Origin: an uncultured Bacteroidota bacterium
Lineage (GTDB): Bacteria; Bacteroidota; Bacteroidia; Bacteroidales; SZUA-534
DNA: 64,000 nucleotides
Assembly: GCA_946404125.1 (NCBI GenBank)
Contig: CAMJCK010000002.1
Span: 39,710-103,709, forward strand
Direction: 5' to 3'
The position numbers and the translations under genes were made by a program. The notes under the pieces are model-generated. The model saw nothing but the letters and a program-made list of their open reading frames with translations, was not told the DNA's origin and made no database searches. Within the stretch, counting starts at the first letter, position 1. Each line of letters begins with the position of its first letter. Positions 1-26,108 of the stretch are shown piece after piece.

Positions 1-195
1 GGAGTTGGCGCGGCATTCCGTTTCGCATTAGGAGAGATAAAGCACCCTAATAAGATGGTGCAGAAGATGGGGTTGACGGGGTTCTTTTGGAGAAAAATGT
101 CCATTAAAAACTTCATTACTTATGTGCACTTTTTTGTAATGCTATCTATATTCACTATAGAAATTCTATTTAGACGCATTTTTCATTTAAACTAA
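1..195 (+). CDS. 3' end of an unidentified CDS entering from the left edge (last ~64 codons, hydrophobic C-terminus)
   Basis: Frame +1 is open from base 1 to TAA at 193-195 (..[27 protein letters not shown]). It is absent from the ORF track because there is no start codon in the window. No motif recognised. Confidence 0.3.
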
Positions 196-14901: not shown

Positions 14902-15767
14902 GCGCGTTGTTTGAATTTTGGCCTTTCGTCGGGAAAGTGTTGCTGACCACCCTTTTCCAACTGCTCTCGATTTTCGGGGTGTTCTTTGTTTTCGGACTGA
15001 TACTCTATATGTTAGCGCGATACACGCGGCGGCTTTTCGTCAACATTTTGGGCGAAAAATCCGACATCTACTTCACCGGTTGGATAGGCACGCCGGTGCA
15101 CGAGTTGGGGCACGCCCTGCTCTGCATCCCGTTTCTGCACCGAATCACTGAAATAAAACTCTACTCGCCCAACGGCGAAGACGGCACTTTGGGCTACGTC
15201 AACCACGCCTACAACCCGCGCAACCCGTGGGCGCAAATCGGAAATTTCTTCATCGCTTTGGGGCCGATTCTGTTCGGTTCGCTGATTATCTATCTGTTAG
15301 TCAGGTTTTTGCTGCCGAATAATCAGGCGCTGCTGACCGCACTTCACGGCTCGCCGGCAAGTTTCACATCGCTGTCGGGATTTATGTCGCTGATGGTGAG
15401 TGTTTTCGCTTCGTCGTCCGATATGATTTACGCGCTTTTCACCGGCGGCCACCTGCACCAATGGCAGTTTTGGGTGTTTCTCTACCTTGCCATTTGCATT
15501 TCGGCGCATATGGAATTGAGCCCGCCCGACCTTAAAGGCTTGGGGTCGGGGCTGCTCGCAATCATTATCATTCTACTGATAGTCAATATTATATTGATTC
15601 TTTTGAATGTCGATGCAATGGTGATTGGCACGGCTGTGGGCCGATGGACAAGTCTCGCAACCGGAATTTTCACGTTGGCAGTCGCCATTTCGGCAATGAC
15701 CTGCCTTGCGAGTCTCATCATTCTGAATATCATATCATTGATAATCAATAAGAAAATCTTTATTTGA
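14898..15767 (+). CDS. Polytopic membrane protein with a single HExxH zincin motif (HELGH)
   Basis: ATGA overlap with the upstream gene. Multiple hydrophobic segments. GTPVHELGHALLCIPFLH. Reminiscent of DUF3267 / M50-like membrane metalloproteases. Confidence 0.65.
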   Translation: MSALFEFWPFVGKVLLTTLFQLLSIFGVFFVFGLILYMLARYTRRLFVNILGEKSDIYFTGWIGTPVHELGHALLCIPFLHRITEIKLYSPNGEDGTLGYVNHAYNPRNPWAQIGNFFIALGPILFGSLIIYLLVRFLLPNNQALLTALHGSPASFTSLSGFMSLMVSVFASSSDMIYALFTGGHLHQWQFWVFLYLAICISAHMELSPPDLKGLGSGLLAIIIILLIVNIILILLNVDAMVIGTAVGRWTSLATGIFTLAVAISAMTCLASLIILNIISLIINKKIFI

Positions 15768-17842
15768 TGCTTCGGTTTGTTCTTATATCGATGTTTCTTC
15801 TAGCAGCTGTTGGGCTTTATGCCCAAACCGATGGCGACGGGCGGCAGACGGTTGAGACTTTGATGGAAAATCTGTCGGAAGAACTTGAAGAAGATGCTGA
15901 TATTGAGCAGATTGCCGAAGATTTGGAATATTTCTTGCAAAACCCCATCAACCTGAATACGGCCACGGCCGAAGACCTTGCCAAGCTGCATTTTCTGAAC
16001 GAGTTTCAGATTGCAAGCCTTACCGACTATGTGCGGCGCAATGGTCCAATGCTCACTCTCTACGAGTTGGCGATGGTTGACGGCTTCGACCAAACCGATA
16101 TTTTCCGCCTTCTGCCGTTTGTCAGGGTGGCCGATGCGGGCGACGAATCGAAATTCAGCCTGAAACGTGCCGTCAAGTATGGGCGCAACGAACTTTTCAG
16201 CCGTGTGTCGCTCGTTGGCGAAGAGCAGGATGGCTTTGCCGATGTGCCTGATTCAGTGCGTATTGCCGAGCCCGAAAAACACTATCCGGGCAACCGCGCG
16301 AAGATTTTCAGCCGCTACTCGTTCAACTTCAACCGCCAACTGATGGCCGGCATCACGGCCGAAAAAGACCCGGGCGAACAGTTTTTCCGCGGGCATCAGC
16401 GCCACGGCTTCGATTTCTATTCGGCCTACGCCGCCATTCACGGCATTGGCCACGTCGAGACGCTGATTGTGGGCGATTTTCAGGCGAAATTCGGTCAGGG
16501 ATTGGTTGCTTGGTCGGGAATGTCGACGGGCAAATCGGCCTTTGTGATGGACATCCGCAAAAAGGGCGCGGGCATCCGCAAATACTCATCGGCCGACGAG
16601 AACCTTTTCTACCGCGGTGTGGCCACCACGCTCAAATTCGGACAATTCCGGGCCACTGTTTTCGGCTCGCACAAGAAGATTGACGCCACACTCGCAAGTC
16701 AGGACACGGCCGCGTCGGAAGAAGCCGGATTCACATCGTTCGGCACCGTTGGGCTGCACGCCACACCAAAGCAGATTGAGAAGGAAGATGTTGTGACCGA
16801 GAGCGTTTGGGGCGCCAACATCAACTTCAACCGCAACAATCTGCGAATCGGGGCAACCGGGTTGGGCTATCAGTACGACAAGGCTTTTGTGAAACGCGAG
16901 ACACCGCTCTACAAGTTCGATTTCGACGGCCGTAAAAATCTGAATGTCAGCATTGACGCGCAATATTCGTTTAGCGCGCTCTATTTGTTTGGCGAGTACG
17001 CGATGTCGGCCAACGGTGGGCGCGCAGCGGTTGTTGGCTCGCTGATGAGCCTTGCGCCGGGACTTCGGGCATCGGTGCTCTACCGCAACTACAGCCGTGA
17101 TTATCAGGCACAATACGCAGGCGGTTTTGCCGAAGGCGGAAAGACGCAGAACGAAGAAGGATTCTTTTTCGGCATCGAAGCAACGCCCATAAAACGTTGG
17201 AAATTATCGGCTTACTACGACATCTATCGCTTCCCGTGGATAAAATACGGACTGAACGCACCGTCGCGCGGCAACGATTTTCTGGCGCAAGCCGAATTTG
17301 CAGCAAACCGCTCAACATCAATGATTTGGAAGGTAAAATACGAAACCACGCAGACGCAAGGCTCTACTGAAGACGGCAAAATCCAACCGCTGGCCGACCT
17401 CTCGCGGTGGACCGTGCGCTACCACCTGAACTACGCCATAAATCAGCGCTGGCAACTGAAAAGCCGCATCGAACTGTCGGGCTACAAAAACGGCAACGCC
17501 GACACCGAAACCGGCTGCCTGCTCTATCAGGATGTAGCCTGCTCGCCGTTCCGTTTCCCACTGAATCTGGCGGTGCGCTACGCCATTTTCGAAACCACCT
17601 ATAACTCACGCATCTACGCCTACGAGAGCGACGTGCTCTACGCCTACTCAATACCGATGGTGTACGGCCGCGGCACCCGCACCTACCTGCTTGCATCGTG
17701 GTCGCCCGCCAAAAACCTGACCGTTTGGGCAAAGGCGTCGCGCACCTGGTACGCCGACAAGCAAACAATCGGCACATCGCCCAATATGATTGACGCCAAC
17801 CACCGCACTGAATTCAAATTTCAGGTAAGGTGGAAGTTTTAG
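15767..17842 (+). CDS. Helix-hairpin-helix (ComEA-like) domain fused to a large outer-membrane beta-barrel
   Basis: TGATG overlap with the upstream gene. Signal peptide MLRFVLISMFLLAAVGLYAQ. An acidic segment, then INLNTATAEDLAKLHFLNEFQIASLTDYVRRNG (HhH). About 550 aa of beta-rich sequence ending FKFQVRWKF. Confidence 0.75.
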   Translation: MLRFVLISMFLLAAVGLYAQTDGDGRQTVETLMENLSEELEEDADIEQIAEDLEYFLQNPINLNTATAEDLAKLHFLNEFQIASLTDYVRRNGPMLTLYELAMVDGFDQTDIFRLLPFVRVADAGDESKFSLKRAVKYGRNELFSRVSLVGEEQDGFADVPDSVRIAEPEKHYPGNRAKIFSRYSFNFNRQLMAGITAEKDPGEQFFRGHQRHGFDFYSAYAAIHGIGHVETLIVGDFQAKFGQGLVAWSGMSTGKSAFVMDIRKKGAGIRKYSSADENLFYRGVATTLKFGQFRATVFGSHKKIDATLASQDTAASEEAGFTSFGTVGLHATPKQIEKEDVVTESVWGANINFNRNNLRIGATGLGYQYDKAFVKRETPLYKFDFDGRKNLNVSIDAQYSFSALYLFGEYAMSANGGRAAVVGSLMSLAPGLRASVLYRNYSRDYQAQYAGGFAEGGKTQNEEGFFFGIEATPIKRWKLSAYYDIYRFPWIKYGLNAPSRGNDFLAQAEFAANRSTSMIWKVKYETTQTQGSTEDGKIQPLADLSRWTVRYHLNYAINQRWQLKSRIELSGYKNGNADTETGCLLYQDVACSPFRFPLNLAVRYAIFETTYNSRIYAYESDVLYAYSIPMVYGRGTRTYLLASWSPAKNLTVWAKASRTWYADKQTIGTSPNMIDANHRTEFKFQVRWKF

Positions 17843-17843
17843 T

Positions 17844-18311
17844 TTACTCCAAAATCTTCACCGCCATCGATTTTAGCTGCTGCCAGCCGGCCTGGTCGGT
17901 TAGGCGCACCATAAAGTGATAGTCGCCAGGGTCGATGTCGGCCGGAATATCGATGTTGATGGTTGCTGTGTATGACTGTTGCCCTTGCGGAATCTCAAAA
18001 TCGCTGTTGAAAACCCACGGATTCACTGGCTTTTTCTCTGCCTCAATGTCGCATTCGGCCGCCGATGTGCTGTGAGTGTGGTGGTCGAAGTTGTTGTGAA
18101 CCTCAATGTTATAACTGCCCAACTCCACATTGTCGGAAAACTGATAGTGGAAAGCAATCACGCCGCTGCGTTTAAACTGCTGACAATCAACGGGGCAAGT
18201 CTGCTCGCCATCGGCAGTGATTTCGGGCAACGCCATATCCTCCGTTTTATCGGAACTGCTGCACGCACAGAGTGCGCACAGCAGAAGCGATGAAAAAATG
18301 CTTTTTTTCAT
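17844..18311 (-). CDS. Lipoprotein, DUF4625-like, His-rich
   Basis: Lipobox LCALCAC. HNNFDHHTHS. Shares the IDIPADxxxGxYH motif with the upstream paralog. Confidence 0.65.
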   Translation of the reverse strand: MKKSIFSSLLLCALCACSSSDKTEDMALPEITADGEQTCPVDCQQFKRSGVIAFHYQFSDNVELGSYNIEVHNNFDHHTHSTSAAECDIEAEKKPVNPWVFNSDFEIPQGQQSYTATINIDIPADIDPGDYHFMVRLTDQAGWQQLKSMAVKILE

Positions 18312-18314
18312 ACT

Positions 18315-18779
18315 TTAATCGTTATGTGAATGTTCGTGTTCGTCGTCATCATCATCGTCATCCTCAACAATTTCGATGTGACATTCGGCCGTCGTTTGCT
18401 GGCCTTCCTTGTCGGTAACCGTGAAGTGAAGATGATACTCACCAAGCGGCGCATCGGCTGGAATATCGATGTGCTCGTGAAACTCTATATTCTTGACACC
18501 TATGTATTTGCCATCGGTAAACGATTTCTCGATTTCGAAACCGCTGCCTTCCTCCTGATGAATTTCGATGTCGATTCGGCTGATTAATCCTTCGGCCAAA
18601 ACATCGGCTTCAAGGTGCAAATCGTGCCCCGGATGGGTGTGGCGGCTGTTGTCGTGCCCCACTTCGGTGAGCGTAATTGTCGGTTTTTCAGGTGTTTCGT
18701 CGTCTTTGTTGCACGATGCAAATACAAATGTCATAGCTGCGAGAGCCGCGATAAGGCTCATATTAAATATCTTTTTCAT
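18315..18779 (-). CDS. Lipoprotein, DUF4625-like, with an Asp7-EHEHSHND C-terminal tail
   Basis: Lipobox FVFASC. PTITLTEVGHDNSRHTHPGHDLHLEADV and IDIPADAPLGEYHLHF. The tail is VEDDDDDDDEHEHSHND. Confidence 0.72.
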   Translation of the reverse strand: MKKIFNMSLIAALAAMTFVFASCNKDDETPEKPTITLTEVGHDNSRHTHPGHDLHLEADVLAEGLISRIDIEIHQEEGSGFEIEKSFTDGKYIGVKNIEFHEHIDIPADAPLGEYHLHFTVTDKEGQQTTAECHIEIVEDDDDDDDEHEHSHND

Positions 18780-18853
18780 TATTGTAAATCTTTATTTATT
18801 AAACATTTAAATCGTTTTTGTTTTTCGTTTTTAGTTAGTGTTTGTGTTAACGT

Positions 18854-20935
18854 TTAAAACTCCCATCCCGCCATAATCGAAAAATTCCGGCCAGCCTCCG
18901 GCACATCAATAAGCCGGTAATAACTGGTGTGGTCATAATAGCGCTTATTCAGCAGATTATCAGCGTGAAGCGACAGACTAATGCTGCTTTCCGCAAAGCG
19001 AAATCTGTGGCTTGCCGACAGACTTAGCGTCCAATAGCCGTCAGTTGGTTTTTCTGGCGGCACTATATTGTCCTGTTTCCCAACTATATGCACGTTCAGC
19101 CCGACAGAACCCTCGCCGTGCCGCTTGTGGCTGTACTTGAGCCCCGCATCGGCCGACCACGGCGTTGAGAACGGCAGCGTGTAGCCTTTTTTCGCGCCCG
19201 ACAGCTGTTCGGCATACAGATACTCGCCTTTCAGTTCGGCATCAATGTGCCGCGTTATTTTGCAAGTGGTCTGACACTCAACACCATAGCGCAAGACTTC
19301 GGCCTGCGTGTAATGGTACAGTTGCAGCCCTTCCTCGTATAACGACGTGGGGTTCAGATAGATATAGTTCGGGAAATAATTCACGTACGGCTCAATCTGA
19401 ATGCTGGCCACCTTGTTTGCCCAATAGGCGCTCACGTCAAGTTGGTACGACACTTCGGGGTTGAGTTCGGCATTGCCGCGCTCGTAGCGGAAAATGTGAT
19501 AGTTGATGCCGTCGGCGCCCAACTCTTTCGGAATCGGTATGCGGAAGCTCTTGCCCACATTGGCTTTCAGCACCCAATCGGTAGCCTCGTAACTTGCCCC
19601 AACCGACCACGTCAGATTATTGAAAGTCAGGTCGGTATCGGCAGAGCGCTGCTTAAAAACCGAATCGGCGCCAACGGGCGTTTTGTACCAGTCGTCGTAA
19701 CTATGAATGTGCGTCTGCGCGAAATCGTAGCGCAAACCGGCATTAAGTTTCAGTTTGTCAGTCGGTTGCCACTTGTCAAGAAGATAGGCGCCGTAGCTCC
19801 CGGTTTCGAAATCCGGAATAATGAATCCCCAGCCTGTTCGTCTATTATGCTGATATTCAGTATTGATGCCAGCGTTTAGATTGTGCTCCGCCAGCGCCAT
19901 TTTCAGCCCGATGTTGGCCGTATAGGTGCTTTTGTCGAAATGACGCTCCATTGGGCCGTCGGGTTTCGGCATATAGCCGTGCGACACCGGTTCCGAGCAC
20001 TCCTCGCGCCTGTTGTTCTGATAGGCAAGCGACACATCAACCGACAAAACACTATTTCGCCAACTGCTGTGACTCAATACTTTAAGATGGTTTACCCATT
20101 GATACGGCAAGTCAATGTCGCGCCGCGAACGGTCGTAATCGATGTCCGACAACCGCACCTCAAGTCCGTGGGCGTTGGCAAAAAATCCGCTTTTTGCGTA
20201 TGTGTCCGACACGCGCAGGTCGGTGTGAAAATTGTATCCGGCATAACCGAGCATCAAACTTCCATCGCGCTCAAGCCCGGCCGTATTGCGTAACCGCTGG
20301 TCTTTCAGCTTGATGTAGTACGAGTAGTACTGAATGCTGTCGGTGGGCACGCGGTAGTCGCCATAGTTGATAATGGTAACGTTGGCGCGGCAGAAAAGCT
20401 TTCCGGCACGCAGTCCTAACTTGGCCGAGGCGCCCAATTGTCCGTTGTTGCTCCGCCCGAACAACTGCACCGCTCCGCTCAAACTATCGGTTGGTATGTG
20501 ATTGGTATATAAGCATATAACACCGCCAATGGCATCGCTGCCATAGAGCAGAGCCGCCGGGCCTTTTATCACCTCAACGCGGTCGATGGCAAACTGGTCA
20601 ATCTCCAGACCGTGGTCATCGCCCCACTGCTGACCTTCGTGTTTTATCCCGTCTTCGGTCACAGCCATACGGTTAAAGCCAAGGCCGCGGATTGTCGGTT
20701 TCGACTGCCCCGAGCCAATGCTCATCGCCTTCACACCCGGAATGCCTTGCAGCGTCTGCATCAGGCTGCCCGAGAAATTCTGCTGAAGATAGTCACGGCT
20801 CACCTGAATCGATGATAGCGTGGTATGCGTCTGTACGGTGCGCACGACGTGGTCCGTAATGGTAACTTCCTCAATATCAATCACCGTGTCGGTCATTGCA
20901 CACAGCAACGCCGCAGCAGCAAGAAAATGTGTCAT
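18854..20935 (-). CDS. TonB-dependent receptor
   Basis: ATG at 20935 (21004 is TTG). Plug motifs GIPGVKAMSIGSGQSKPTIRGLGFNRMAVTEDG and RVEVIKGPAALLYGSDAIGGVI. C-terminus NFSIMAGWEF. Confidence 0.92.
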   Translation of the reverse strand: MTHFLAAAALLCAMTDTVIDIEEVTITDHVVRTVQTHTTLSSIQVSRDYLQQNFSGSLMQTLQGIPGVKAMSIGSGQSKPTIRGLGFNRMAVTEDGIKHEGQQWGDDHGLEIDQFAIDRVEVIKGPAALLYGSDAIGGVICLYTNHIPTDSLSGAVQLFGRSNNGQLGASAKLGLRAGKLFCRANVTIINYGDYRVPTDSIQYYSYYIKLKDQRLRNTAGLERDGSLMLGYAGYNFHTDLRVSDTYAKSGFFANAHGLEVRLSDIDYDRSRRDIDLPYQWVNHLKVLSHSSWRNSVLSVDVSLAYQNNRREECSEPVSHGYMPKPDGPMERHFDKSTYTANIGLKMALAEHNLNAGINTEYQHNRRTGWGFIIPDFETGSYGAYLLDKWQPTDKLKLNAGLRYDFAQTHIHSYDDWYKTPVGADSVFKQRSADTDLTFNNLTWSVGASYEATDWVLKANVGKSFRIPIPKELGADGINYHIFRYERGNAELNPEVSYQLDVSAYWANKVASIQIEPYVNYFPNYIYLNPTSLYEEGLQLYHYTQAEVLRYGVECQTTCKITRHIDAELKGEYLYAEQLSGAKKGYTLPFSTPWSADAGLKYSHKRHGEGSVGLNVHIVGKQDNIVPPEKPTDGYWTLSLSASHRFRFAESSISLSLHADNLLNKRYYDHTSYYRLIDVPEAGRNFSIMAGWEF

Positions 20936-20973
20936 AAATCGATTATTTGATTTAAACAAACTGATTATCAGTT
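20936..20973. promoter_or_regulatory. Two adjacent AT-rich palindromes, candidate Fur/Zur-type operator
   Basis: AACTGATTATCAGTT (20959-20973) is a perfect 7-1-7 palindrome; read on the - strand it contains TGATAATCA. AAATCGATTATTTGATTT (20936-20953) is an imperfect palindrome abutting the receptor ATG. Confidence 0.4.
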
Positions 20974-21037
20974 CGATAAATATGCAGCAAACGAGAGCCT
21001 GCAATTCGGGCCAATAAAAAAATAGCGGGATGTTTGT

Positions 21038-21379
21038 TTAAATCGTAGGAGGGGCGCGTCCGCGAATGTGCCCGTATCTGTTGCAAGGAATGAGGCTGCA
21101 CTCTGCGGTTTGGATGTATCTTGTTAATAATAAGAGTGATGCAATGGTAATCGACAGCGCCATTGCGAAAGGCAACTGGCACAGTTGGCAAATAAGGCAA
21201 TTGCTATCGGCCAGTTGAAATTCAATCAAGTGCCCCGAATGGCAAGAGTGGTGTGCGCACTGTTCGCACTCATAATCAGCGTGATACACCAGCTCGTGCG
21301 TGTGAACCGCCAGCACGGCAACGCGTGTCAGAAAAACTGCAAGCAGGAGCAGGGCCGATATGTTTCTACGCTGTTTCAT
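21038..21379 (-). CDS. Small Cys/His-rich membrane-anchored protein, first gene of the TonB operon
   Basis: N-terminal hydrophobic anchor, then HTHELVYHADYECEQCAHHSCHSGH and CLICQLCQLPF, then a second hydrophobic segment. Similar in style to the small CxxC proteins found next to metal TonB receptors. Confidence 0.5.
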   Translation of the reverse strand: MKQRRNISALLLLAVFLTRVAVLAVHTHELVYHADYECEQCAHHSCHSGHLIEFQLADSNCLICQLCQLPFAMALSITIASLLLLTRYIQTAECSLIPCNRYGHIRGRAPPTI

Positions 21380-21387
21380 TTGCGGGG

Positions 21388-21395
21388 CAAATATA
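21388..21395 (-). promoter_or_regulatory. Candidate -7 box TATATTTG
   Basis: Exact TAnnTTTG match 8 nt upstream of the ATG at 21379. Confidence 0.35.
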
Positions 21396-21404
21396 TGGCG
21401 ATTT

Positions 21405-23750
21405 TCAAATTCTCACACCCATAATCACCACATCGTCGGTTTGGTTGCTGACGGGGCCGCGCCACTCCTCAAACACGACATTCAATATTTTTTTCTGCTC
21501 GGCCATTGGTTGCTCGTGGATTTCGAGCAGCAAATCGCGCAAGCGGCGGCTCATAAATTTTTTGCCTGTCTCAGCGCCGAACTGGTCCTGAAATCCGTCG
21601 GAGAAGGTGTAGATGCAATCGCCGCGCTGAATGTCGATGGTGGTGCAGGTGAACGGGTCGAGGCACTCGTGGATGCCGACTGGCATACGGTCGGCTTTGA
21701 GCGTCTGAACCTCGTTGCCGCGAATGAGCACAAGCGGATTGTTGGCTCCGGCATACGACAGTTTCATCAGTTTTTCGTTCACAACGTATGCCGCCACATC
21801 CATACCGTCGCGGCTGCGGTCGCTGGTGTCGACTTGCGCTGTGGGGTGCTCGGCATCGTGCAGGGCGGTATGGACATCGGACCGCTGGCGCAGGTTGGTG
21901 ATTATGGCCTCGCGCAGGTGATTAAGAATCACATCCGGGCTAACGTTCTGTTCCACAATATAATTCAAATTGGCCATACCGAGCACGCTCATAAATCCTC
22001 CAGGCACGCCGTGGCCCGTGCAGTCGGCCACAATGCTGACTTTGTTGTCGCCAAACTGGCCCACCCAGTAGTAATCGCCGCTGACCACGTTGCGTGGTTT
22101 GTAAAGCACAAAGTAATCGGGGAAAATGCTGGCGATTGTCTTCGACGGCGTGAGCAGCGAGCGCTGTATGCGGCGGGCGTAGTTGATGCTGTCGTGAATC
22201 TCCTCGCTCTGCTCTTTGATTTTTTCGGCTTGCGTCTGAATCTCCTCATTCTGCGCTATAATCTCGTCGTTTTGTGCAAGAATCTCATCGTTCTGCGCCT
22301 GAATCTCCTCAGCCTGTTCGGCCAGAATGGCGTTCTTCTCGGCAAGCTCGGCATTGGCTTTGTGCTTGATATGCAGCACTCTGGCAATGTAGAATATCAG
22401 CAGCACGAACAGCCCCAAGCCGCCAATAAGCGAGATGTTGACAATGCGCATCCGTCGGCGCTCGGCGGCGTGCAGTTTGGCATCGTTCTCGCGCTTCATC
22501 TCCTCAATCATCCGCGTGCGCTCAACCTCGGCGTTTTTTATTGAGTTGAGGGCGTTCTCGTTCACTTGCTCCGACTTGTATTGGTCGTATTTTTCATAGT
22601 GGGCCAGAGCGTTTTTGTAGTCCTCAAGGAGCAGATAGACTTCGTAAAGACGCCGGTGATAGGTTTTCTTGTCGGCAGCCGGGCTGTCATCGTCAAAAAA
22701 CTTCTCCAGTTTCAGCAATATTGCCAGCGCGTCATCGTATCTGTGAAAAAACACAAGATAGTCGGCGTAAGTGTACCGGTCGAGGAGGTAGCTGAAAGGG
22801 TCGCCCACCTTCAGATTATAGTTGCCCACTTTCTTAATGTATATGTAGCAGCTGTCGGCGTAAACGCTTTTGCCCGTGTAGTTCGCCAATTGAATGTAAG
22901 CCTTGGCAAGGTCGGTGTATGCCCAATATTTTATTGTGATAAAATTCTCATTGTCAGTATTTTTTGTTTCGAACAGATAAATCGATTTTTTCAGATTCTC
23001 GATGGCGCTGGTTATCAGGGTGTCCGATTTTTTCGAGAGCAGCTGGCCAATACAACGGTAGTATGTGGCCATATCCAGGGTGTCGTTCATAAGAGTGGCG
23101 AACGCCAAGGCCTTCTGGTAGTTTTCTTCGGCGTTGGCATACAGTTTCATATGTGTGTACACATCGCCTAAATCCTTGTATGTCTGACAAATGCCTGCCG
23201 TATCTTGCAGTGTGATGTAGATGTTGAGCGCCCGGTTGAAATAGAGAAAAATGCTGTCGGGTACGTTCAAATCCTCATAGCAGAGTCCCGCACCAAGGCA
23301 GGCTTGCGCAACGTATTTGTTTTTTGAGGTGTCGTTGTACACGTGCATCGCCTTCAGAGTGTAATCCAGCGCATCGCGCGCGTCGTCTTTTATGTAATAT
23401 GCGTAGCCGAGTTCGTAGTAATCGCAGGAAATCAGCTCTGAATCAGTTGGTTGGCAGTATTCCAGCGAGAGCGCGGCATATTTCATTATGGTGTCGATGT
23501 TGTCGGAGGCAATTGCCATCCTGCAGTACTCCTTTGCTTTTTCAATGTCGGGCTCGCGTTTTTTTATCACAACGAGCTTATTGTTGAGATTGGGCTGCTC
23601 TGTTTCGGCAAGATTGGCGGTGTCAAGGTCTTCGCTCTGACTATAAGCAATTTGCGACAGCATAAACAAAACCGCTGCTGCAAAAAAAACTGTAAACCGC
23701 GACAGTGTGTGCCGTGTGGTTTTGCCACAATTGTTTTCAAAATTGCTCAT
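21405..23750 (-). CDS. TPR-repeat / TM / coiled-coil / PP2C (SpoIIE-family) protein phosphatase, paralog 1
   Basis: ATG at 23750 (23774 is TTG). Signal peptide or anchor, about 400 aa of TPR-like repeats, TM IVNISLIGGLGLFVLLIFYIA, a heptad coil, then the SpoIIE/PP2C domain (SGDYYWVGQF, ADCTGHGVPGGFMS, SDGFQDQF, TDDVVIMGVRI). Confidence 0.88.
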   Translation of the reverse strand: MSNFENNCGKTTRHTLSRFTVFFAAAVLFMLSQIAYSQSEDLDTANLAETEQPNLNNKLVVIKKREPDIEKAKEYCRMAIASDNIDTIMKYAALSLEYCQPTDSELISCDYYELGYAYYIKDDARDALDYTLKAMHVYNDTSKNKYVAQACLGAGLCYEDLNVPDSIFLYFNRALNIYITLQDTAGICQTYKDLGDVYTHMKLYANAEENYQKALAFATLMNDTLDMATYYRCIGQLLSKKSDTLITSAIENLKKSIYLFETKNTDNENFITIKYWAYTDLAKAYIQLANYTGKSVYADSCYIYIKKVGNYNLKVGDPFSYLLDRYTYADYLVFFHRYDDALAILLKLEKFFDDDSPAADKKTYHRRLYEVYLLLEDYKNALAHYEKYDQYKSEQVNENALNSIKNAEVERTRMIEEMKRENDAKLHAAERRRMRIVNISLIGGLGLFVLLIFYIARVLHIKHKANAELAEKNAILAEQAEEIQAQNDEILAQNDEIIAQNEEIQTQAEKIKEQSEEIHDSINYARRIQRSLLTPSKTIASIFPDYFVLYKPRNVVSGDYYWVGQFGDNKVSIVADCTGHGVPGGFMSVLGMANLNYIVEQNVSPDVILNHLREAIITNLRQRSDVHTALHDAEHPTAQVDTSDRSRDGMDVAAYVVNEKLMKLSYAGANNPLVLIRGNEVQTLKADRMPVGIHECLDPFTCTTIDIQRGDCIYTFSDGFQDQFGAETGKKFMSRRLRDLLLEIHEQPMAEQKKILNVVFEEWRGPVSNQTDDVVIMGVRI
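22236..22319. repeat. 4 x 21-nt tandem repeat encoding heptads (NDEILAQ/NDEIIAQ/NEEIQTQ...)
   Basis: Units at 22236-22256, 22257-22277, 22278-22298 and 22299-22319 all share xxGAATCTCxTCxxxCTGxxC. Confidence 0.8.
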
Positions 23751-23811
23751 ATCAAATTGGTTTTCAACCGTCAATATTTCTATTGGCTACTTCCTGCGCA
23801 CAGGAGTAATA

Positions 23812-23819: not shown

Positions 23820-23891
23820 TGTAATTTCAATTAAAAAATATACGCAAGGTTGAAAAAGTTGGGATTCGGGCTTTGGTTTGCGTTTTTTCAA

Positions 23892-26108
23892 TCAAATCCT
23901 CACGCCCATAATCACCACGTCGTCGGTTTGGTTTTCGGCCGGACCGCGCCACTCCTTGAAGATAAGGTTCAGCAATTCGCGTTGCTCGTCCATTGTGCGG
24001 TTGTGGATTTCGAGAAGCAGGTCGAGCAGGCGGCCTTTTTGGAATTTTATGGATGTCTCGTAGTTGAACTGGTCTTGGAAACCGTCGGAATAGGTGTAGA
24101 GGCAGTCGCCTTTGCGCAGCTCCATTGTAACGGTCTTGAACGGCCTCATATCTATGGCGATACCTACCGGCATACGGTCGGGTTTGATGACCTGCACCTT
24201 GTTGTCGCGGATGAGCACCAACGGAGTGTTGGCCCCGGCAAACGAGAGCGTCATCGTTTTTTCGTTCACCACATAAACCGCCGCATCCATACCATCAAGC
24301 ACTTGGGCAGTCAGTTTCTCGGGCGTTTCCTCGCTTTGGCGGAGGTTATGCGTTATCGCTTCGCGCAGCTTGTTGAGGATGGCGTCGGGGGTAATGTCCT
24401 GGCTTACAATATAATTTAGGTTCGTCATTCCCAGCACGCTCATAAATCCGCCCGGCACGCCGTGGCCTGTGCAGTCGGCAATAATGCAAACTTTGTTGTC
24501 GCCAAACTGGCCAACCCAGTAGAAGTCGCCGCTCACCACGTTGCACGGTTTGTAGAGCAGAAAATAGTCGGGGAAGACTTTGCCGATGGCCTCTTCGGGT
24601 GTGAGCAGGGCCCGCTGGATTCGCCGCGCGTAGTTGATGCTGGCGCGAATCTCTTTGCTCTGCTGCTCAATGTGGTCGCGCTGTGTCTCAATCTCCTCTT
24701 TTTGCTCAATAAGGAGTGTGTTTTTTTGAGTGAGCTCCGCGTTTGCTTTCTTCTTGAATTTCAGTACTCTGGAGATGTAGAACACCAATAGCGAAATCAA
24801 GAACAATCCGCCGATGAGCGAGAAAATGGCGATTTGCATCTGCCGCTTTTCGGCGTTATGGATTTGCATATCTTTCTCGCGCTCAACCTTTTCAATCGTC
24901 ACGGCCTGCTGCGTTTTGGCATCCGAAAGAGCGGCCATTGTGCTGTCGTTCAGGTTTTTCCACCCATACTCGCGTTGCTTTTCCGAATGTTCGTAGGCCC
25001 GTTTGTAGTCGCCGAGCAGAAGGCAAACCTCCTTGAAACGGCGGTGATAGTCCTCGTAAGCCGCTGGCGCCGTCTCATCGTTGAAGCTGTTCCCCAGGCT
25101 CGTCATAAAGATTCTCGCCTCGTCGTACCGCTTGTAAAAAATCATATAATCGACATAGACGTAGTAGAACTTGCGGAATTCGGCTGTCGGGGCGTTTTTG
25201 ATGAAATATTTCTCGGCTTTCTGATGATAGTTGTAGCTGCTGTCGGCATATTCAGTCTTGCCGGTTTTTTGCGCAAGTTTGATGTAAATTGATGAAAATA
25301 TGCGATATACGTAGAACCGTGTGTACGAGTCGTCGGCCTCGAAAATGCCGGCGGCTTTTTTAAGGTAACCGGTTGCGGTCAGCATTTCTCTGACCGAGCT
25401 ATTCTCTTGCTCGTCAACCGATTGCGCGAGCAGAAACAGGTCGTAGCCGTATTCGTGGCTGCTTTTCCGCAGCGAGTCAATTCCGAGAGTTCTTTTGAAA
25501 TAGTCCTCCGCCTCTTTGAACAGTTTTTTGTTGAGGTATATTTCGCCCAAATGACGATAGCAGTCAACCAAGAGAATCGTGTCATTAATCTTCTTGCTGA
25601 TATCCAACGCTTTATCCATATAATGTGTCGCGCTGTCGATGTCATTCAAATCATCGAAAACGAGCGCCAGCCGCTGATATGTTTTTGCCATCATCTTTGA
25701 ATCGTCGAGCTTCGACGAATATTTGATGGATTTCTGATGGAAAAGCAGTGCGTTTTTGAACTCCTCGTCTTTGTGGTACGATTCGGCTATAGCATAATAA
25801 TTGTTTGCAAATAACGAATAATCAGTGTATTGGCAGTATTCCAGCGAGAGCAGCGCGTATTTTTGAATGGTGTCAGAAATCTCGGCAGCCATTGCTATCT
25901 CGCAGAAATACTTGGCTTTAACGCTATCAGGGCTGTCAGGCTTGATGAACGACAGAAGACTGTCGATTTTTGTTTGGTGCGGATCGACGTAAACCTCTGG
26001 TTTTATTGCCAAATTATCTTCTTGGGAATAAGCGATTTGTGGCCGTGCGAGCAATGCCGCAGCCAATAAAACAATAAGGTTTATCGATGTTAGGTAGCCC
26101 CCCCTCAT
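23892..26108 (-). CDS. TPR-repeat / TM / coiled-coil / PP2C (SpoIIE-family) protein phosphatase, paralog 2
   Basis: Same architecture as paralog 1. The catalytic half is near-identical (SGDFYWVGQFGDNKVCIIADCTGHGVPGGFMSVLGM...TDDVVIMGVRI). Confidence 0.88.
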   Translation of the reverse strand: MRGGYLTSINLIVLLAAALLARPQIAYSQEDNLAIKPEVYVDPHQTKIDSLLSFIKPDSPDSVKAKYFCEIAMAAEISDTIQKYALLSLEYCQYTDYSLFANNYYAIAESYHKDEEFKNALLFHQKSIKYSSKLDDSKMMAKTYQRLALVFDDLNDIDSATHYMDKALDISKKINDTILLVDCYRHLGEIYLNKKLFKEAEDYFKRTLGIDSLRKSSHEYGYDLFLLAQSVDEQENSSVREMLTATGYLKKAAGIFEADDSYTRFYVYRIFSSIYIKLAQKTGKTEYADSSYNYHQKAEKYFIKNAPTAEFRKFYYVYVDYMIFYKRYDEARIFMTSLGNSFNDETAPAAYEDYHRRFKEVCLLLGDYKRAYEHSEKQREYGWKNLNDSTMAALSDAKTQQAVTIEKVEREKDMQIHNAEKRQMQIAIFSLIGGLFLISLLVFYISRVLKFKKKANAELTQKNTLLIEQKEEIETQRDHIEQQSKEIRASINYARRIQRALLTPEEAIGKVFPDYFLLYKPCNVVSGDFYWVGQFGDNKVCIIADCTGHGVPGGFMSVLGMTNLNYIVSQDITPDAILNKLREAITHNLRQSEETPEKLTAQVLDGMDAAVYVVNEKTMTLSFAGANTPLVLIRDNKVQVIKPDRMPVGIAIDMRPFKTVTMELRKGDCLYTYSDGFQDQFNYETSIKFQKGRLLDLLLEIHNRTMDEQRELLNLIFKEWRGPAENQTDDVVIMGVRI

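Follow-up and report, generated by a model that had tools for sequence, protein, structure and literature searches.

What does a small protein rich in Cys and His do at the head of an operon for outer-membrane uptake? The question is raised by a locus on the minus strand of a 64,000-nucleotide stretch of DNA, termed here the window (contig CAMJCK010000002.1, positions 39,710–103,709, of assembly GCA_946404125.1), from an uncultured rumen Bacteroidota bacterium of the Bacteroidales. The open reading frame (ORF) listing of the window gives four co-directional minus-strand ORFs at this locus, which encode a 113-residue protein, a TonB-dependent transporter and two lipoproteins, termed A and B. 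An initial annotation of the same DNA, made from the sequence alone, had described a compact operon with this order of products, and the four ORFs bear it out; the motifs that it quoted, HTHELVYHADYECEQCAHHSCHSGH, CLICQLCQ, HDNSRHTHPGHDLH, HNNFDHHTHS, IDIPADxxxGxYH and a DDDDDDDEHEHSHND tail, are all found in the translations.

The 113-residue protein is most likely a metal-sensing, cis-acting ribosome-arrest leader peptide and not a transport protein. This reading is based on an invariant C-terminal RAPP motif, a spacer that is constrained in length only, a sensor region predicted to be disordered, and a hairpin that joins the leader stop to the start of the next gene. The initial annotation had offered a periplasmic or inner-membrane acceptor or a regulator as possible roles; the second part of that proposal stands, in the form of a regulator acting in cis, and an acceptor now appears very unlikely. 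The gene order, family membership, conserved motifs and spacing, and hairpin architecture are observations and are described below; we infer the arrest, the direction of regulation, the identity of the metal and the binding of metal by the lipoproteins. On balance it is probable that the locus as a whole is a self-contained, metal-repressed outer-membrane uptake operon under arrest-leader control.

The probable leader peptide, its presumed sensor and its arrest motif

The leader ORF (positions 21038–21379, minus strand; 113 amino acids) belongs, by transitive homology, to the Bacteroidota branch of DUF2946, which is CruR/CutF-like. The protein begins MKQRRN, followed by hydrophobic residues 8–25 with a hydropathy peak of 2.56, and a further hydrophobic segment spans approximately residues 66–86. 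Thirteen close homologs, with 51–90% identity, keep every His and Cys. An exhaustive profile search brought together 467 leader-family representatives of about 115 amino acids, and the invariant columns of this family are HxH, CxxC, GH, CxxC and the C-terminal RAPP. In the window protein the corresponding sensor residues are H26-x-H28, C38-x-x-C41-x-H43-H44, G49-H50 and C61-x-x-C64. These columns are invariant or nearly so in alignments A1 and A2, and both CxxC motifs are invariant. Together they mark out a presumed metal-sensor region, residues H26–C64 (21188..21304, minus strand), which may bind metal.

The arrest motif, Arg108-Ala-Pro-Pro111 (21047..21058, minus strand), is two codons before the leader stop. 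RAPP and RGPP are the strongest arrest cores known, and R[AG]PP is found near the C-terminus in 247 of 253 family members (216 with RAPP, 31 with RGPP). The tail from the motif to the stop is 2–4 residues in most family members and two in the window. Between the last CxxC (C64) and the RAPP motif (R108) there is a spacer of 43 residues, a length shared by 213 of the 247 R[AG]PP-bearing relatives; a Flavobacterium relative (locus L051) has 45 residues, counted by hand. The length of the spacer is kept and its sequence is not conserved, as predicted for the ‘ruler’ of an arrest peptide. In all six frames of the 64-kb window, the leader is the sole ORF of at least 40 amino acids that ends in R[AG]PP. 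An AlphaFold2 model of the leader has helices at residues 2–27 and 71–96, and the Cys/His region between them is of low confidence and predicted to be disordered. The model has a low predicted local distance difference test score (pLDDT 58.7) and is used solely for the absence of a predicted independent fold in the Cys/His region.

The initial annotation had guessed that the small protein is DUF2946-like. This holds for its relatives, as 14 of 24 profile-linked leader relatives match PF11162 over its full length (positions ~5–117 of 117). One of these, P0190, exceeds the PF11162 threshold (24.9 versus 23.7 bits) and is the sole one to do so among those scanned. The window protein itself has no match, and its link to the family is transitive. 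Pfam and NCBIfam scans of the leader found no family, and ten Bacteroidota leader ORFs compared with NCBIfam matched no named family. The zinc-finger model HVO_A0556 was considered (E = 0.023 for the leader, and at best 9e-4 among 12 of 14 close homologs) and rejected as a weak match that reflects a resemblance of pattern only. The DUF2946 members CruR and CutF have been shown experimentally to be metal-sensing leader peptides (PMC9426467; 10.1101/2022.11.11.516240), and through them the link to a transition metal that was proposed initially has become stronger.

The conserved cassette and the stop-to-start hairpin

Leader, transporter and DUF4625 genes form a cassette that is found in at least seven different flanking contexts. 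In the seven independent contexts, the leader is directly upstream of a transporter of ~695–717 amino acids, usually followed by one or two DUF4625 genes, and the flanking genes are different in each. A locus scan with the transporter alignment as query and one genome per species gave 80 loci, which cover Bacteroidales, Flavobacteriales, Sphingobacteriales, Cytophagales and Chitinophagales. Of these, 49 non-redundant loci have, upstream and on the same strand, an ORF that ends in R[AG]PP; DUF4625 genes follow the transporter in most of them, as in most of the 80. The window and two loci retrieved earlier bring the analysis set to 52 loci. In the seven contexts and the 52 non-redundant loci, the leader is always the first gene and directly 5′ of the transporter. 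Twenty neighbouring genes scanned across species are mutually unrelated (peptidases, glycosidases, an ABC ATPase, RF-1 and others), and ZnuABC, Zur, Sco, PCuAC and PepSY partners were not found among them.

A second small ORF is found between the transporter and DUF4625 in ten relatives, among them Flavobacteriia, Bacteroidales and unclassified Bacteroidota metagenome-assembled genomes (MAGs) (L051, 5107–5445; L068, 5054–5401; L069, 5013–5384; L070, 5125–5460; L075, 5090–5446; L077, 5088–5438; L079, 5066–5416; L080, 5094–5432; L081, 5066–5407; L082, 5106–5435). Its product is hydrophobic at the N-terminus, contains His and Cys, and has RAPP or RGPP at the C-terminus; the window lacks such an ORF. 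These features suggest a second arrest-peptide checkpoint inside the operon. In addition, one uncultured Bacteroidales MAG has tandem leader-family ORFs, both ending in RAPP, ahead of one transporter (L023, 1715–2086 and 2351–2818).

The transporter ORF is listed at 18854–21004, opening at a TTG codon at 21004. The start is most likely the ATG at 20935, which gives a protein of 693 amino acids (18854..20935, minus strand; MTHFLAAAA...), because gene callers chose the equivalent start on homologous contigs; TTG 21004 is unlikely. With this start there is a gap of 102 nucleotides between the leader stop and the transporter ATG.

Within this region are two complementary arms. The 5′ arm, GAUUUAAACAAAC (21032..21044, minus strand), overlaps the last two sense codons of the leader, its stop codon UAA (21040–21038) and six further nucleotides. 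The 3′ arm, GUUUGUUUAAAUC (20949..20961, minus strand), is at −26 to −14 relative to the transporter start codon. The arms form a perfect 13-bp complement, which joins the leader stop region with the transporter start region. If arrest occurs with Pro110 in the P site and Pro111 in the A site, a ribosome of the usual footprint would cover most of the 5′ arm.

Equivalents of the hairpin, with unrelated arm sequences, are found in other lineages, over some 50 species in all. The 5′ arms UGCUGUUUGAUUC, GUCUGUCUGAAUUAUUGGGA, UUUUGAAUGAGAUUAUU and UUUCUGAUUAAAAAAUAG each have a complementary 3′ arm; arm sequences vary and the pairing is kept. Over 49 loci, with start codons set by a simple rule, the minimum free energy z-score has a mean of −2.3, and the arm-to-arm duplex energy has a mean of −10.6 kcal/mol versus −6.5 kcal/mol for shuffled sequences. 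In a sliding-window control with 48 loci, 20-nucleotide segments were scored against the transporter start region; those that begin −5 to 0 nucleotides from the end of the RAPP codons, i.e. right after RAPP, give −10.3 kcal/mol versus a background of ~−6.1 kcal/mol, and a sharp minimum is found there only. Where the duplex is strong (29 loci), the 3′ arm mostly spans −26 to −10. Intergenic regions are 31–57 nucleotides long in many orthologs (up to 60), with the hairpin reaching the start region.

A candidate Bacteroidetes −7 promoter box, TAtaTTTG (21388..21395, minus strand), is read 8 nucleotides upstream of the leader ATG. A TAnnTTTG box is found 15–18 nucleotides ahead of the leader ATG in the window and in four other loci (L001, L003, L006 and L007) whose upstream genes are unrelated. 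This recurrence points to a promoter dedicated to the leader ORF, whose mRNA would be nearly leaderless, with a very short 5′ untranslated region. A scan for sigma-70 promoters and intrinsic terminators found sites no more often than in shuffled sequence; the promoter model used does not apply to Bacteroidetes.

A 7-1-7 palindrome, AACTGATAATCAGTT (20959–20973, minus strand), overlaps the 3′ arm of the hairpin. Its core, CTGATAAT[CT]AG, is kept in L001 and L006 and is not kept in L003. The palindrome contains GATAAT, which is like a Fur-family half-site, and may serve as an operator that adds transcriptional control as a second layer, or may just be part of an inner stem.

How might these elements work together? 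Transcription would begin just upstream of the 113-codon leader ORF. When the metal is scarce, the ribosome would arrest on RAPP and sit on the 5′ arm of the hairpin; the stalled ribosome would free the 3′ arm, the −26 to −14 region of the transporter would be unmasked, and the transporter and the two lipoproteins would be made. When the metal is sufficient, it would bind the His/Cys sensor of the nascent chain just outside the ribosome exit, where the 43-residue spacer would place it, beyond the exit tunnel, and metal-driven folding would release the arrest. The ribosome would then terminate, the hairpin would re-form and expression would stop, with Rho-dependent termination possibly added. 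At the cell surface, the His clusters and acidic/His tail of the DUF4625 proteins would capture the divalent metal cation and act as a lid.

Two characterised leader peptides provide the comparison. CruR (Bp2923), of the bp2923-bfrG-bp2921 operon of Bordetella pertussis, requires its CXXC, its RAPP and a 45-residue spacing for copper control, and mutation of the CXXC abolishes this control (PMC9426467). CruR has also been found to arrest in vitro (PMC12992588). As with CruR, the window leader is a small first ORF with an N-terminal export signal, CXXC, and RAPP 2–3 residues before the stop, it is directly 5′ of a TonB-dependent transporter, and its Cys/His region is predicted to be disordered, as reported for CruR. 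The spacer is 45 residues in CruR (45, give or take 1–2, in Proteobacteria) and 43 in the window. Since both leaders head import operons, the same logic would be expected, with the operon on when the metal is scarce. The differences are that the window leader is from another phylum and is itself below the Pfam model, and that its sensor is richer, with two CxxC motifs and 5–6 His. The intergenic region is 102 nucleotides in the window (31–60 in many relatives) versus 162 in CruR, and the window has a hairpin onto the transporter start, whereas a Rho-dependent terminator is documented for CruR. The partner genes also differ: the window has DUF4625 lipoproteins and a ZnuD-like transporter, and the CruR operon has a PepSY_TM protein.

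The second, CutF, is encoded in cutFOG of Rhodobacter capsulatus, where the stalled ribosome melts a stem-loop that masks the ribosome-binding site of the next gene (10.1101/2022.11.11.516240; 10.1101/2025.02.05.636593). CutF and the window leader share a DUF2946-type exported leader, a Cys motif and a C-terminal proline-rich stalling motif. However, the gene under CutF control encodes a copper-detoxifying multicopper oxidase, and the stall there is induced by copper, whereas the window genes encode importers and the opposite response would be expected. The best-supported scheme for the window joins the logic of CruR, whose importer is expressed under metal scarcity, with the device of CutF, a stall that opens a stem-loop. 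ApdA, ApdP and SecM, too, are small exported proteins that regulate a downstream gene and have the same arrest core close to the C-terminus (PMC10951233; PMC12992588). These monitor Sec or YidC and are released by translocation force, in contrast to the release by metal binding that is proposed here.

CutF-like proteins have been catalogued in Bacteroidota, frequently with TonB-like proteins downstream, and no Bacteroidota member has been studied individually (10.1101/2022.11.11.516240; 10.1101/2025.02.05.636593). Thus, what is already known is that RAPP/CutF-like leaders precede TonB-type genes, Bacteroidota included, as bulk-catalogued from 2022 to 2025, and that DUF4625 proteins have been proposed as lids. 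New here are a CruR-type leader that heads a transporter/DUF4625 module, the enriched sensor, the conserved stop-to-start hairpin of an importer operon, and possible sensing of zinc.

Transporter, lipoproteins and the choice of metal

Which metal would the operon take up? The transporter belongs to a ZnuD/haem-receptor-like clade. Its Plug and beta-barrel domains exceed the Pfam thresholds, and the closest solved relative is ZnuD (4rdr, E = 2e-21). Its best NCBIfam matches are partial ones to the ZnuD and haem-receptor subfamilies, all far under their cut-offs: the ZnuD model NF038289 gives 139 bits versus a cut-off of 950, with partial model coverage, and TIGR01785 and TIGR01786 give 136 and 134 bits (cut-offs 317 and 324). 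The OprC/NosA model, TIGR01778, gives 64 bits versus a cut-off of 472.

The high-affinity zinc site of ZnuD is formed by Asp99, His100, Glu340 and His499 (PMC4557270). The plug residues D107-H108 of the window transporter align with Asp99-His100. Among 87 orthologs H108 and H283 do not vary, H256, H319 and H669 are more than 90% conserved, and position 107 is occupied by D (81 orthologs) or E (6). The ZnuD residue His499 aligns to Asn478, and the Glu340 region did not align. The likeness to ZnuD of Neisseria meningitidis (PDB 4rdr; PMC4557270) is in the plug, where its Asp-His pair aligns with an invariant D/E-H, and in candidate ligands that are His, Asp and Glu; ZnuD differs in being Zur-controlled and in having neither a lipoprotein partner nor a leader peptide. 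No conserved Cys or Met was found in the transporter at a level of at least 75% among the 87 orthologs. The copper(I) site of OprC has Cys/Met ligands. OprC and NosA are also TonB-dependent metal importers and are often preceded by a DUF2946 leader in Proteobacteria, but their Cys/Met copper site has no conserved counterpart in the orthologs. A stretch of the window transporter, FRIP...H...NPE, resembles what are named the FRAP and NPNL boxes in haem receptors. His480, which is near Asn478 and between the FRAP-like and NPNL-like boxes, is not conserved.

Both lipoproteins belong to DUF4625 (PF15418), a guess of the initial annotation that is borne out by scores well above the cut-off of 27 bits. 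Lipoprotein A (18315–18779, minus strand; 154 amino acids) scores 88.3 bits (E = 7e-25) and lipoprotein B (17844–18311, minus strand; 155 amino acids) scores 135.4 bits (E = 2e-39). The two had been described as paralogs; this is correct as to the shared family, but the paralogy is distant, with 41% identity over the last 37 residues only (BLASTP). Lipoprotein A has the lipobox FASC, KDDE after the lipid-modified Cys, and a poly-Asp/His tail. The acidic residues after the Cys are presumably the Bacteroidetes lipoprotein export signal, which leads to surface exposure, and the lipoproteins may accordingly be placed at the cell surface. A-type orthologs from many genera conserve LHLE, EIH, FHEH and YH[LF]H (YHLH in A), and the poly-acidic tail recurs in them, sometimes with His. 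Lipoprotein B, with 676 homologs, has the lipobox LCAC, of which the Cys is invariant, and B-type orthologs keep H72, H77, H78, H80, H132 and a Cys pair (alignment A4). The conserved His clusters and acidic tails suggest that the lipoproteins bind metal.

An AlphaFold2 model of lipoprotein B has an immunoglobulin (Ig)-like beta-sandwich with a pLDDT of 85. Sequence searches of the PDB with lipoproteins A and B found no relative, and an exact-sequence look-up of lipoprotein B found no match. Two candidates for lipoprotein B were set aside. The top Foldseek match, a copper lytic polysaccharide monooxygenase, has a root-mean-square deviation of 15.8 Å and is meaningless; the Riean_0653 family, which is linked to a haemolysis phenotype, is a sub-threshold match and too weak.

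In Prevotella-type loci, a lipoprotein gene is found between the transporter and DUF4625-B (L009, 8502–8921; L011, 8570–8989; L018, 4881–5363; L019, 5061–5570; L020, 5076–5531). Its product, of 137–139 amino acids, has no recorded Pfam match but contains FHxH and carries a poly-Glu/Asp tail, and probably represents a divergent A-type DUF4625 protein.

DUF4625 has been proposed as a ‘lid’ family for non-SusC TonB-dependent transporters, and in Bacteroides thetaiotaomicron AlphaFold-Multimer contacts and cofitness support BT1420-BT1419 as a transporter/lid pair (10.1101/2023.03.17.533168). The idea of capture lipoproteins in the initial annotation fits this proposal, and by analogy the window lipoproteins fit a lid or capture role. 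The likeness to BT1420-BT1419, in which a DUF4625 lipoprotein also adjoins a non-SusC TonB-dependent transporter, is at the level of the Pfam family. The window differs in having two DUF4625 genes, and no leader ORF is mentioned for BT1420-BT1419. The literature on BT1419/BT1420 and on zinc-responsive TonB-dependent receptors in Bacteroides gave no substrate data. A functional analogue of the proposed DUF4625 role may be ZepA of Anabaena, an extracellular or cell-surface protein with His clusters (H-X2-9-H-F/Y-H) and a His/acidic tail, which is reported to be tied to zinc uptake through genomic context (PMC10957091). ZepA differs from DUF4625 in having no detectable homology, a different fold, a PEP-CTERM anchor and Zur regulation.

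Zinc is favoured as the metal because the transporter is ZnuD-like, its conserved ligands are confined to His, Asp and Glu, the sensor has a Cys4/His array that weakly resembles a zinc finger, and the tails are acidic and His-rich; also because the operon is abundant in strict anaerobes, and Bacteroidota RAPP leaders have no link to known copper factors. Copper has the established precedent in the regulator family. Weighing these, we give Zn2+ not quite an even chance, copper a lesser one and any other metal the smallest. A more specific proposal, which we put forward tentatively and hold to be possible rather than probable, is that the Bacteroidota leader branch senses zinc via a zinc-ribbon-like Cys4/His array (HxH, CxxCxHH, GH, CxxC) and so unmasks a ZnuD-like transporter, and that DUF4625 proteins are surface zinc-capture lipoproteins, widespread in gut and rumen Bacteroidales and including relatives of BT1419/BT1420.

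Little need for copper is known in strict anaerobes, to which the host and many carriers of the operon (Prevotella, Phocaeicola, Paludibacteraceae) belong. This stands against a strict copy of CruR, in which the operon would import copper, the CXXC would sense Cu, Rho-dependent termination alone would be the switch, and the hairpin would be a pause element or incidental. Such a copy draws on CruR being the only characterised family leader that heads a TonB-dependent transporter, and on its being copper-specific and Rho-dependent; CXXC is also a classic Cu(I) motif, and the last third of the window leader (21040–21180, minus strand) has C at 27–37% and G at 12–22%, which resembles the Rho-utilisation region of cruR. 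However, the low OprC/NosA score and the lack of conserved Cys/Met ligands argue against an OprC-like transporter, RAPP leader ORFs in Bacteroidota are tied to TonB-dependent receptors and not to known copper factors (PMC12992588), and short intergenic regions of 31–57 nucleotides with a hairpin at the start region fit translational masking. A strict CruR copy is thus rather unlikely. The hairpin architecture is more like that of CutF, a member of the same leader family with a stem-loop, in which copper enhances stalling, than like that of CruR. Under the logic of CutF, metal would induce the stall, and the operon would be on at excess metal for a purpose other than acquisition. We consider this very improbable, as the downstream genes encode an importer and capture lipoproteins and not detoxification, induction of an importer at excess metal would be harmful, and the opposite logic is seen in CruR, which also heads an importer operon.

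Haem auxotrophy is common among Bacteroidales, and uptake of haem, a porphyrin or a metallophore has to be weighed as well, with the DUF4625 lipoproteins as haemophore-like binders analogous to HmuY. The haem receptor models score the transporter nearly as high as the ZnuD model does, the FRAP/NPNL-like stretch is present, and the weak Riean_0653 match of lipoprotein B points the same way. But the haem-family scores are far under their cut-offs, the diagnostic His between the boxes is not conserved, and the operon is equally common in haem-prototrophic aerobes (Flavobacterium, Pedobacter, Chitinophaga); such regulator families have so far been linked to metal ions and not to haem, and poly-acidic/His tails suit the capture of free cations. 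Haem uptake is therefore improbable. The two hydrophobic segments and dense Cys/His cluster of the small protein could also be those of a stable two-helix inner-membrane protein that acts in trans, as a metal acceptor, chaperone or thiol-redox partner. For such a protein it would be odd that the top conserved feature is an arrest motif 2–4 residues from the stop, that the spacer is conserved in length alone, that the Cys/His region is predicted to be disordered and that a hairpin joins the leader stop to the start of the next gene; CruR, moreover, is barely translated and undetectable as a protein. A role in trans has a very slim chance of being correct.

Several points weigh against the reading of an arrest leader that unmasks a metal importer. 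The window leader gives no match to PF11162 even at E = 1, so that family membership is transitive, and the literature holds no experiment on any Bacteroidota family member. The intergenic fold of the window as a whole, over a region of 211 nucleotides, is no more stable than shuffles (z = −0.33); the signal comes from a single helix and from the presence of its equivalents in other species. About a third of loci give a weak hairpin signal or none, and start codons may be wrongly assigned in some of these; at intergenic regions of less than ~45 nucleotides, moreover, the windows used to score the duplex overlap, which can inflate the scores. CruR works by Rho-dependent termination and not by masking of a ribosome-binding site, and the C-over-G stretch of the leader is a possible Rho-utilisation site. 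Finally, the neighbourhood offers no conserved clue as to which metal is involved, and comparison of the lipoprotein B model with the PDB by Foldseek gave generic Ig-like sandwiches only, with TM-scores of at most 0.54.

Passage of trace metals across the outer membrane of gut and rumen Bacteroidota is poorly understood, and the operon bears on this. Recognition of the leader would give the whole module a concrete function, metal-repressed uptake. The finding is an extension and refinement of a known class and not a new principle: it would extend metal sensing by nascent chains to a phylum in which Shine-Dalgarno-led initiation is largely missing and regulation through access to the mRNA is mechanistically sensible. 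Should the metal be zinc, the leader would be the first zinc-sensing arrest peptide, DUF4625 would be a new family of surface zinc-capture lipoproteins, and a gap named in the CruR paper would be filled, i.e. that no riboswitch is known for Zn or Cu (PMC9426467).

Neighbouring genes

The remainder of the window is an ordinary Bacteroidota chromosome, with GldM, IspG, PurL, IF-2, two topoisomerases and MutS2. By transporter identity the nearest genomes are an uncultured Bacteroidetes MAG (98%) and a Salinivirgaceae MAG from yak reticulum (95%).

Downstream of the operon is a convergent gene of 692 amino acids (15764–17842, plus strand) whose N-terminus is a ComEA-like helix-hairpin-helix (HHH_3) and whose long C-terminal region by eye resembles an outer-membrane beta-barrel. 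Its stop and that of lipoprotein B are 1 nucleotide apart, and no terminator-like element is detectable between them.

Upstream, tandem paralogs of 789 and 738 amino acids (21405–23774 and 23892–26108, minus strand) have TPR repeats and a SpoIIE/PP2C phosphatase domain and, by eye, a Gln/Glu-rich repeat and a hydrophobic segment between the two domains. The first of these (21405–23774) stops 25 nucleotides ahead of the leader ATG. The genes are probably unrelated to the cassette, since they are missing from its other contexts. Long plus-strand ORFs at 21360–22544, 23850–24419 and elsewhere are antisense to the SpoIIE and other genes; they lie opposite genes that have Pfam support and are probably non-coding shadows.

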